64,000 bases of DNA from Gammaproteobacteria bacterium (GTDB lineage: Bacteria > Pseudomonadota > Gammaproteobacteria > S012-40): contig JAOUJM010000001.1 in assembly GCA_029883265.1 (NCBI GenBank), positions 10,511 through 74,510 on the forward strand, given 5' to 3'. Of this stretch, positions 17,097 to 18,732 are shown one piece after another. Position 1 is the first letter of the stretch; each line of letters opens with the position of its first letter. Below the pieces are notes generated by a model, which was not told the origin of the DNA, made no database searches, and saw only the letters and a list, made by a program, of their open reading frames with translations. A program made the position numbers and the translations under genes.

Positions 17097-17563
17097 CAGT
17101 CTACCCTAATATTATCTGTAGAGTTGAATATGCTGCGCTGCCCAGCACTATTCAAGATCAAACTTTGACTTTGTTGCTGCCTAAATATATCCAATACCAT
17201 ACGATCCCCGGGCCAGCCTGATGCATCTAGTTTAATGTCTGTCGTTCCGGGATGAGTATGACCAGACCACTTATAGCCTTTATCAGCCAAACCTTGTAAT
17301 TCAGATTTGGTTAATGGAACACCTCCAGCATTCCCTCTAAACACTAGGCGTTGACTACCATTAGTAAACAAAGCAAACTCATCACCTGTCTTTGCCGTAA
17401 GCGCTGCCAGATCAGTCACGCTTATTTGCTTCTTATGAAGAGTTGTACTTGATAATGTATCTGGTAATTGACCCAAAACCCGTTGTTGACGCTTTGACAA
17501 ATCGCCAAAGCCCCAAGCTATTTCGCTAGGAGAACTAGCTGAAATCGTCTTGTTTGGAACTAC
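17096..17563 (-). CDS. Orphan toxin C-terminal module O1, JAB/MPN-like HxH motif (paralog of O11)
   Basis: ORF 17096..17500 extends in frame to VVPNKTISASSSPSEIAWGFGDLSKRQQ.... Motifs DEFALFT ... WSGHTHPGTTDIKLDASGWPGD. Confidence 0.55.
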   Translation of the reverse strand, partial: VVPNKTISASSPSEIAWGFGDLSKRQQRVLGQLPDTLSSTTLHKKQISVTDLAALTAKTGDEFALFTNGSQRLVFRGNAGGVPLTKSELQGLADKGYKWSGHTHPGTTDIKLDASGWPGDRMVLDIFRQQQSQSLILNSAGQRSIFNSTDNIRVD

Positions 17564-17853
17564 ATACTAAATCCGCTTTTCCAATCACTTTTAGTAGTAG
17601 GATCCGACCTCATTTCTTCTAAGAAGAACTCACACGCTGAGCTTTCATCCTCAAAACACTCTTTGCCAGTCTGCAATCCTCTCTCACTATAATAAACACA
17701 CCACCGGCCATTTTCACAACGCAAGCACAACGCCTCGTCCTTTTGTTCCTCCTCCAATGAGTAAGAGCTAGGATTAAATTTCTCCTCACTCAACTTTCTT
17801 TGAAGATCATCTTTATTCATGCAATATCCCTCATCATTTTGTAACGCGCTCAA
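17560..17853 (-). CDS. Putative immunity protein of the displaced native TNT-like toxin (O0)
   Basis: 97-aa ORF. The likelier start is ATG at 17820, which has a GAGGGA Shine-Dalgarno 6 nt upstream. Its stop is the TAG inside GTAGTTCC of the next junction. Confidence 0.6.
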   Translation of the reverse strand: MSALQNDEGYCMNKDDLQRKLSEEKFNPSSYSLEEEQKDEALCLRCENGRWCVYYSERGLQTGKECFEDESSACEFFLEEMRSDPTTKSDWKSGFSM

Positions 17854-18732
17854 GATATTGGTTTGCTGGATTCAAGAGCTCCTTTACTGATTTTGGCAAC
17901 TCGTATTGGGTACCATATCCAGGCATATCAAAAGCAGGTGCAGCTGGGCCAATGCGTGTATCCGGAATTTCTTGGAGAACGCGATACACATTCAAGTTAC
18001 TCACATCTGTGCCGGGACGAAGGGATAATGTTTCTGGAGTTGTTCCTAAGGGGCTTGCGAATGTACCGCGTTCATTCCCGAGACGGCCTATTAGCTGTCC
18101 AGGTTGCAATGAGCCAATCTCATCAGCACCATAAACAAAACCTTTATTCTTCGGCCAATCCCAGAACACATTTTCTGCACCATACTTGCTGGTCAAATAT
18201 TCATTCCATTGAGCGCCTGAAACTGCTCCAGTCTTGTTTGGAACACGATCACCGCCTTTATATTTTAATATACCGCCAGCAATAAAACCATATGTTAAAC
18301 CACCCAATAGCTCTGGATTCTCCCTGTTCTGCCACAAGTTCCTCAGACTTTGGACCTTTCTATCTGAAAATTCGGTACTAGTAGGAAAACCCAGCTTATC
18401 TAACTTAAAGAAACTATTAAAATTTAAAGAGAGGTCATTAAACTCTTCCCAGATATTTTTTCCTATATCTAGCAAAACCTCTAAAGTCTCATTTGTCAAT
18501 CTGTCACCAAGATCTTTATGAGCATTTAGGGTTCCTTTACTGAATCTCAATGCGTAATCACCCACATCTCCGTTTTGTTTCTGCTGGTTACTCCGGCCCA
18601 AAACAACCCCATTAATCTGATCAAGTTGCTGCATTGCCTCTTCTAAATTTTGTTGACTCTCAGAAACCTCTCCAACCCCCTCCTCCTTACTATGTCCCGC
18701 CAACGTCAATGGTAAATCCACTTCCTGGCCAT
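17834..18732 (-). CDS. Displaced native 3' end of the giant toxin gene (O0): ~165-aa pre-toxin segment, VPNK junction (18233-18244) and TNT-like NAD+ glycohydrolase domain
   Basis: ORF 17834..18817. The first 28 codons are encoded by the IS66 left end. The next 3 (HGQ) span the IR tip and the 8-bp duplication, and native sequence resumes at EVDLPLTLAGHSKEEG. C-terminal GQLIGRLGNERGTFASPLGTTPETLSLRPGTDVSNLNVYRVLQEIPDTRIGPAAPAFDMPGYGTQYELPKSVKELL matches the TNT pattern (R-x-G...G-x-F-x-S-P-x-G-T...Y-x-V...G-x-x-A-P-x-F...G-x-G-x-Q-Y). Confidence 0.75.
18725..18732. repeat. 8-bp target-site duplication, left copy (CTGGCCAT)
   Basis: Identical octamer immediately outside both IRs (18725-18732 and 22840-22847). 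Confidence 0.85.

Follow-up and report, generated by a model that had tools for sequence, protein, structure and literature searches.

The diversity of polymorphic toxin genes is ascribed to recombination, with old C-terminal tips displaced into orphan arrays. In Rhs/YD-repeat polymorphic toxins, a very large repeat carrier ends in a variable C-terminal toxin followed by an immunity gene, and Rhs loci have a downstream array of start-less former tips with their immunity genes, in which a short peptide motif marks the module boundary. Here we describe a locus that shows a different route. It lies in a 64,000-nt stretch (hereafter the window) of a metagenome-assembled genome (MAG) from an uncultured gammaproteobacterium, and all genes bearing on the main result are encoded on the minus strand. 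Positions 17560-18732 of the window are very probably the former C-terminus of a giant RHS-type toxin gene that now ends at 21847, displaced by insertion of an insertion sequence (IS) of the IS66 family with replacement of the tip. The transposon landed in the carrier and replaced the tip in frame, while the old tip, a predicted nicotinamide adenine dinucleotide (NAD+) glycohydrolase (NADase), and its presumed immunity gene were kept as an intact fossil.

The locus resembles Rhs loci in its very large repeat carrier, its variable toxin and immunity gene, its array of former tips and its boundary motif. Unlike Rhs, it has no PxxxxDPxGL motif, its module boundary is a VPNK peptide at which just 7-14 nt are shared, and LysM domains and a hydrophobic segment stand between repeats and tip; displacement occurred here by transposition of a cargo-carrying IS rather than by recombination with incoming DNA. 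A four-residue motif at the start of an exchangeable module, with orphan toxin/immunity pairs downstream, also recalls the CdiA-CT/CdiI systems of contact-dependent growth inhibition (CDI), where the motif is VENN. Our locus differs from these in having no VENN and in not encoding a two-partner-secretion protein, and the 12 nt found here are less upstream homology than CdiA orphans usually keep. As for the old tip, it shares with the TNT-like toxins (Mycobacterium tuberculosis TNT/CpnT, Aspergillus fumigatus AfNADase and Serratia Rhs1-CT(SJC1036) “Tne4”; PMC10539506) the Pfam TNT domain, an Arg/Phe(Tyr)/Gln triad and fold matches confined to that family. In Serratia Rhs1, too, the TNT tip ends an Rhs-type carrier and an immunity gene follows; in contrast, the carrier studied here is about 4 times larger, no link to a type VI secretion system is seen in the window, and the immunity protein matches Imm59 only below threshold.

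The inserted element has the tnpA/tnpB/tnpC genes, GTAAGCG repeats and 8-bp target duplication of the IS66 family, and is comparable to “transporter IS” with passenger genes. Unlike a plain IS66 element, it and its sibling copies have tnpC and the right repeat separated by 1.3-1.8 kb of cargo, including a start-less toxin open reading frame (ORF) for which the repeat is translated as a linker. Polymorphic-toxin function is also moved by a transposable element in the mobile CDI locus of Burkholderia thailandensis, where the entire system is reportedly the passenger (PMC6350997); in our case just a tip and its immunity gene travel, dependent on a resident carrier. Our full-text literature searches turned up transposases in the vicinity of polymorphic toxins and a transposon with a complete CDI locus as passenger, and no IS in which translation runs through the repeat into a toxin tip that it carries. 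While the orphaned TNT tip alone is a member of well-known kinds, the manner of its orphaning, in which a cargo-carrying transposon supplies another tip, represents a new form of C-terminal displacement. Because the target duplication is perfect and the old tip undamaged, the states before and after can be written exactly, making the idea testable. If general, transposition would join the known mechanisms of effector exchange in bacterial competition, and this would explain the frequent transposases in toxin loci.

An IS66-family element within a giant toxin gene

The giant ORF today comprises 6,384 codons and runs on the minus strand from 41001 to 21847. Its body (22848..41001; about 6,051 codons upstream of the insertion) was delimited as an RHS/YD-repeat polymorphic toxin gene by ORF, Pfam, motif and hydrophobicity scans. 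Downstream of the body lies the element, referred to as copy A, which occupies 18733-22839 (4,107 bp). It is bounded by a left inverted repeat (IRL; GTAAGCGTCCTAAACTCCGCACC, 18733..18755, plus strand) and a right inverted repeat (IRR; 22817..22839, minus strand); both begin GTAAGCG and they match at 20 of 23 nt (3 mismatches). Directly outside IRL and IRR stand the two copies of a perfect 8-bp target-site duplication, CTGGCCAT, at 18725..18732 and 22840..22847. Since CTGGCCAT flanks both repeat ends, 18733-22839 is the unit that moved.

Three transposition genes identified with Pfam are encoded on the plus strand of copy A: tnpA (18817-19173), tnpB (19140-19523) and tnpC (19554-21044). The matches include TnpB_IS66 (PF05717, E = 2.8e-33) and DDE_Tnp_IS66 (PF03050, E = 5.1e-85), with further hits on the TnpC side to zf-IS66, LZ_Tnp_IS66 and the C-terminal element. 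Copy A is therefore a member of the IS66 family with passenger genes: it is ~1.8 kb longer than the transposition genes need, and the surplus consists of an ankyrin-repeat gene and the final 330 codons of the giant ORF. These 330 codons carry the giant ORF straight through IRR, which is translated in its frame as VSVQNSAP; the peptide across the insertion joint reads ...GYGQVSVQNSAPGK....

Reconstruction of the probable ancestral C-terminus

An earlier note on this DNA, made from the letters and a list of ORFs, had proposed that the gene before insertion encoded a protein of ~6,350 aa with a TNT-type tip, and had suggested in-silico excision as a check. Deleting 18733-22847 (the element plus one duplication copy) joins ...NGGKTYNGYGQ in frame to EVDLPLTLAGHSKEEG... 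(EVDLPLTLAG...), and the product is a single uninterrupted ORF of exactly 6,350 aa that ends in the TNT domain. The reconstructed empty-site joint reads ...AATGGGTATGGCCAGGAAGTGGATTTACC.... The sole VPNK of this ORF is at residue 6215, while the current 6,384-aa ORF has neither VPNK nor junction-like DNA, so that the junction does lie downstream of the insertion, as had been claimed.

Beyond the left duplication copy, the earlier note had traced the frame for ~165 aa to GGDRVPNK. We find the minus-strand frame EVDLPLTLAGHSKEEG... open for 164 codons, including the VPNK at 18244..18233. This pre-toxin segment (EVDLPLTLAG...KYKGGDR; 18245..18724, minus strand; 160 aa before the motif) carries no start codon itself and, once the element is excised, continues the giant ORF. 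Its 492 nt, VPNK included, contain no stop in the coding frame, compared to 13 and 21 in the other two sense frames, and 0 of 20,000 shuffles were stop-free. As the stretch is open in that frame only, and no shuffle equalled it, it is a genuine coding fragment without its own start. The segment has no Pfam match, and an exhaustive HMMER search of 1.84 billion representative proteins with the 164 aa recovered no homologue other than itself.

These observations support a pre-insertion gene encoding a 6,350-aa protein with a TNT tip. Its last ~300 residues would have consisted of the 164-aa pre-toxin linker ending in VPNK and then the TNT NADase, with an 86-aa immunity gene next. The 4,107-bp element evidently transposed as one unit into codon 6,054, generating the 8-bp duplication; the insertion evidently fused the transposon-borne tip in frame to the carrier and parted the TNT tip from its start codon and carrier. 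The immunity gene of the replacement tip would have arrived on the same element. We infer that the new tip is a working effector of phospholipase type against which the ankyrin protein protects, that the old 86-aa immunity gene is still expressed via its own ribosome-binding site and probably protects against TNT-armed kin, and that the orphaned TNT fragment is most likely silent. Since the TNT module and its immunity gene are undamaged, either the insertion is probably recent or the pair is still under selection. More generally, transposition into the 3' part of a toxin gene may swap the weapon and bring the antidote in one step, leaving the old tip orphaned.

The displaced tip and its presumed immunity gene

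The orphaned tip (17834..18232, minus strand; 132 aa followed by a TGA stop at 17836-17834) is a predicted NADase that belongs to the TNT family by every feature checked, namely profile hidden Markov model (HMM), triad and modelled fold. The TNT pattern that the earlier note had seen after VPNK was borne out by the HMM search: Pfam TNT (PF14021) matches with E = 2.3e-20 and 73.2 bits (cut-off 27), covering 86 of 88 profile positions. Aligned to the AfNADase sequence (6yge; E = 1e-7), the tip has identical residues at R129, F137 and Q194; the corresponding tip residues, R54, F62 and Q113, are invariant in 8 homologues. The NAD-binding/active-site residues are R129/F137/Q194 in AfNADase and R757/Y765/Q822 in TNT, and are also listed for Serratia Rhs1-CT(1036) (PMC10539506). 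An AlphaFold2 model built from an alignment of eight sequences reached a predicted local distance difference test (pLDDT) score of 67, and the top 16 PDB fold matches of this model are all TNT-like NADases (AfNADase, other fungal NADases, Tse6, Rhs1-CT and TNT), with E = 2e-7 and a template modelling (TM) score of ~0.55 against AfNADase. Homologous TNT tips, 63-85% identical, occur on unrelated carriers that include an RHS/YD-shell protein and a DUF6862 protein. The similarity of the window tip to these toxins from other loci starts ~5 aa after VPNK, which identifies VPNK as a true module boundary.

Immediately downstream is the presumed cognate immunity gene (17560..17820, minus strand; 86 aa), which begins at ATG 17820 behind a GAGGG Shine-Dalgarno sequence (17832-17828, 7 nt upstream) and ends in a TAG stop (17562-17560) that overlaps the next junction motif. 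A 97-aa version of the ORF starts at TTG 17853; the internal ATG with a good Shine-Dalgarno sequence, already singled out in the earlier note, is the start supported by three homologues of 86-94 aa (71-78% identical), which begin at the same Met. Homologues of the gene lie 12-16 nt downstream of a TNT toxin gene on three contigs with unrelated carrier architectures (L015, L016 and L017). Adjacency conserved across differing carriers is the classical signature of cognate immunity, and because the gene is adjacent to TNT toxins on different carriers, the 86-aa protein is likely the cognate immunity protein of the TNT tip. It may be distantly related to Imm59 (PF15597), which matches at 21 bits (cut-off 26.9; E = 5e-4), a sub-threshold match found in all four homologues. 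An AlphaFold2 model made without an alignment (pLDDT 60) was unusable.

The replacement tip and sibling elements

The replacement tip (21847..22816, minus strand) is a start-less ORF that continues from IRR, forms the C-terminus of the 6,384-aa protein and resembles a phospholipase-like alpha/beta-hydrolase with a GHSLGG motif. Local Pfam searches gave weak Lipase_3 and Thioesterase matches only; PF26363 (“Phospholipase-like”) is found in 95 homologues, among them several RHS-, PAAR- or VgrG-annotated proteins. The presumed immunity gene for this tip (21095..21823, minus strand) encodes a protein with Pfam ankyrin repeats and an N-terminal hydrophobic leader that ends in Cys. Read by eye, the leader is presumably of lipoprotein type; an ankyrin lipoprotein would fit periplasmic immunity against the predicted phospholipase.

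A second copy of the element, copy B, is present at 6847-10500, with repeats at 6847 and 10478-10500. Its transposition genes are 92% identical to those of copy A and its 23-nt IRR is identical, while its cargo is wholly different: a frame open from the repeat (VSVQNSAPRKNNPVGSNMLASVGQ..., 251 codons), then another ORF whose N-terminus looks signal-peptide-like on inspection. Copy B sits in frame immediately behind the GTAGTTCCA of an orphan VPNK junction. It has no target duplication (CAGTGATA at 6839-6846 vs TGGAACTA at 10501-10508), and one of its flanks must have been rearranged after insertion, e.g., through a deletion next to it or a recombination event involving two IS copies.

A third relative, element C, comes from a contig of the same community (L019, positions 1-5516). 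Its TnpC is 66% identical and its repeat identical at 22 of 23 bases. The cargo comprises a 291-codon ORF in the repeat frame, which a single stop interrupts after 34 codons. The ORF has a DHIFP motif reminiscent of HNH nucleases when read by eye (no Pfam match), and a gene for a protein with a weak, sub-threshold SUKH-1 match follows this toxin-like ORF. Copies A and B and element C thus have near-identical IRRs encoding VSVQNSA(P/R), and in all three the cargo lies on the strand opposite the tnp genes, in the same frame. More distant IS66 relatives (L020-L023 and P0107) showed no comparable cargo or repeat.

In another sample, a 99-nt piece made up of the end of cargo A and the repeat (100% identical) adjoins a type I-F CRISPR array on its leader side. 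The CRISPR-array site shows that the cargo end is linked to the repeat at more than one site, and toxin genes are evidently not the sole targets. The same insertion point beside the array (flank GAGCTGCGAAAATATTC, 24 nt from the first repeat) has the end of cargo A on one contig (L018:1-260) and the end of cargo C on the other (L019:5418-5620); the first spacers differ as well. This difference reflects either in-situ exchange of cargo between elements or an assembly-graph end effect.

It is possible, and we suggest it tentatively, that these IS66 elements are dedicated vehicles for toxin tips, each delivering a start-less toxin and its immunity gene with the translated IRR (VSVQNSAP) as linker. 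Cargo might also be exchanged between copies, with homology arms provided by the shared repeat and the tnp genes; more speculatively, the CRISPR-side site, with cargo C in one sample and the end of cargo A in another, could be a case of such movement. A cassette at 6041-6846, described below, could likewise be the footprint of an earlier insertion of the same kind, a speculation under which a later rearrangement is required, given that copy B has no duplication.

Evidence from relatives and alternative explanations

The evidence for the reconstruction (duplication, repeats and frame continuity) is strong but internal to the locus, since neither an empty-site allele nor an orthologue was found. 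A word-indexed search with the reconstructed 427-aa C-terminus returned only the window's own ORF and relatives that share the TNT domain alone. A scan of GTDB species genomes yielded only distant relatives of the LysM region, from six MAGs, at 35-58% identity and with unrelated C-terminal parts; a protein-pattern scan of metagenomes for an orthologue or empty site gave nothing, and exact look-ups of the immunity and ankyrin proteins retrieved only contigs in which the IS is already present. The comparison with orthologous giant genes that the earlier note had envisaged thus came up with none continuing into EVDLPLTLAG, solely because no close relative was available; the excision part of the proposal held.

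Several points weigh against the reading of 17560-18732 as a former C-terminus whose replacement is a working tip. All searches together provided no empty-site allele, no giant-gene orthologue and no pre-toxin homologue, and a promoter/terminator scan of 17300-19000 found nothing above shuffled expectation. The model of the TNT tip is of moderate confidence. Because the insertion also removed the 164-aa pre-toxin segment from the expressed protein, the chimera may fail to deliver its new tip. The same type of element occurs at a non-toxin site, with an in-frame stop there, so that targeting of toxin genes is hypothetical; copy B is without target duplication. NADase activity, immunity, expression and secretion at this locus are predictions made from sequence.

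The alternative that survives best, although we consider it rather unlikely, is ordinary gene disruption, in which the in-frame continuation is fortuitous, the chimera is not a working toxin and the passengers are unrelated baggage. An in-frame insertion in the correct orientation has a 1-in-6 chance for a single event; beside the CRISPR array no ORF reads into the element; the IRR frame of element C stops after 34 codons; and the pre-toxin segment lost from the expressed protein was possibly needed for delivery. What such an account leaves unexplained is that the cargo ORFs of copies A and B have no start at IRR and are open through it, with element C in the same frame apart from its one stop, and that in copy A the frame stays open for 330 codons into a family typical of RHS, PAAR and VgrG effectors. 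A plausible immunity gene also follows each cargo toxin (ankyrin in A, weak SUKH-1 in C, signal-peptide-like in B), and copy B was likewise inserted in frame, at a VPNK junction.

Replacement of the tip is compatible with a second possibility, which appears improbable: that the orphaned TNT module is still made separately, as a 327-aa ORF from TTG 18817 or from a shorter internal start, and acts as a stand-alone toxin or toxin-antitoxin. The module is intact, and existing annotations by gene callers and NCBI list a 327-aa or 306-aa “TNT domain-containing protein” (the NCBI entry is a 327-aa ORF on an 82-kb contig). Yet the first 31 residues of the longer product would come from the IS terminus, no Shine-Dalgarno-like sequence was read upstream of TTG 18817, the promoter scan gave no candidate upstream of the fragment on the strand required, and Pfam detects no secretion or carrier domain in it.

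It is very unlikely that the IS found the TNT cassette already displaced and orphaned, its continuity with the giant gene being coincidental. CdiA and Rhs loci do contain orphan modules with some upstream coding sequence still attached, the cassette at 6041-6846 also has 128 coding codons upstream of its VPDN, and comparative confirmation of the reconstruction was not found. Against this, a perfect 8-bp duplication flanks exactly one element and excision restores a stop-free frame across the joint; the IS would need to have hit the boundary of two unrelated sequences and yet have duplicated one target. Finally, an assembly chimera at a repeated IS, conceivable for a window taken from a MAG with repeated IS copies, can be dismissed, because nine contigs from five samples (JGI, ENA and Logan), 99.96-100% identical to the window, have the element or its end at the same site with the same junctions, one (L013) spanning the whole element and both flanks and two (L011 and L012) reading from the giant gene through the cargo into tnpC; they do not in themselves provide the ancestral state.

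The VPNK junction and the orphan array

The VPNK junction of the TNT module (GTTCCAAACAAG; 18233..18244, minus strand) marks the start of the exchangeable toxin module. GTTCCAAACAAG occurs five times exactly and 14 times with ≤2 mismatches (minus strand only, 1094-18244); one more minus-strand match (the 15th), at 613, falls within an IS110 transposase gene and was taken as chance. In total 21 matches were observed compared to a shuffle mean of 7.1, and no shuffle reached 21. Each of the 14 junctions is followed by a start-less in-frame stretch of 129-184 codons, except for the last one, which is truncated and ends at 67; most orphan cassettes have a stop codon shortly before the motif, no more than a few codons away. 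The rest of the array (902..17560, minus strand), delimited by motif and ORF scans, comprises 13 further VPNK/VPDN-headed start-less toxin modules with small ORFs downstream; it is interrupted by copy B and ends at the IS110 transposase gene. Toxin-family Pfam matches were obtained for two orphan modules, one an LHH nuclease and the other a nucleotidyltransferase (NTP_transf_2). The orphan cassettes have in common only TAAGTWGTTCCAAACAAR at the 14 junction sites.

By the distribution of its matches, VPNK qualifies as a real, non-random module boundary. The earlier note went further and called it a recombination junction linking the main gene to the array; the boundary stands, with 14 sites, and a role in recombination is hypothetical. 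Between the main-gene junction and the orphan junctions the longest in-register exact identity is just 7-14 nt, which falls short of the usual need for RecA-type recombination. A site-specific process or a function at the peptide level, such as a cleavage site, are possible reasons for the preservation of so short a motif. The note had also held that the expressed gene is now uncoupled from the array. Its separation from VPNK is real, yet the 23-nt IRR encoding VSVQNSAP is shared with copy B within the array and gives another junction. Three distant relatives of the giant gene have no 11-mer repeated at least three times downstream, and the VPNK array is thus not family-wide.

The cassette at 6041-6846 (minus strand) is the only other one with upstream coding sequence of this kind, the 128 codons before VPDN, and it directly abuts the IRL of copy B, as the TNT cassette abuts an IS66 left repeat. 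Its VDFALTLAGSS resembles VDLPLTLAGHS from the beginning of the TNT pre-toxin segment; no significant similarity emerged when 6041-6846 was compared with the reconstructed protein by BLASTP, and the VDxxLTLAGxS string is possibly chance. At the distal end of the array, the IS110-family transposase gene (DEDD_Tnp_IS110, E = 8e-18; 1-702, minus strand) is adjoined by a truncated duplicate of the last orphan toxin (1105..902 vs 1696..1307).

The carrier protein and its surroundings

The giant protein has a DUF6531 domain at its N-terminus and RHS_repeat matches across consecutive segments (E = 1.8e-60, 1.5e-40 and 2.9e-25), and its precomputed record lists TEN_YD-shell. Between the repeats and the tip are LysM domains, an HNNADTFKPY motif and, around aa 5786-5815, a single segment of strong hydrophobicity. 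A motif scan of the giant protein for the PxxxxDPxGL core-end motif found no P....DP.G match; the lone DP.GL is at aa 2657, distant from the tip. By these motifs the protein is RHS-repeat-containing without being a canonical Rhs core, a classification rejected on the basis of the absent PxxxxDPxGL. A CdiA/VENN system was rejected as VENN was not found in the reconstructed protein.

The region that combines LysM, ...HNNADTFKPY.P.EIIG.. and the hydrophobic segment (23700-24100, minus strand; aa ~5700-5815) is conserved in the giant relatives (L002-L007), which derive from Nevskia, Thioalkalispiraceae, Kangiellaceae, Hahella, Pseudomonadales and one alphaproteobacterial MAG. It is the sole part of the C-terminal region conserved among them, and all sequence beyond it is hypervariable. 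Judged from this pattern, it may be a real processing or translocation landmark of the giant toxin family.

Base composition and GC content at third codon positions (GC3) were uninformative: body, pre-toxin segment, tips, cargo and tnp genes all have 0.33-0.46 GC. The 64-kb window showed no genes for type VI or two-partner secretion. The gene for a DUF6973 protein lies upstream of the giant gene, at 44815-46089 (minus strand); a second DUF6973 gene (L023:2234-3469) adjoins a fourth IS66 variant in a related sample. Farther from the toxin locus on that side, a flagellar gene cluster (47101-63964, minus strand) encodes FlgI, FliF, a FliI-type ATPase, hook/rod proteins and a sigma factor.

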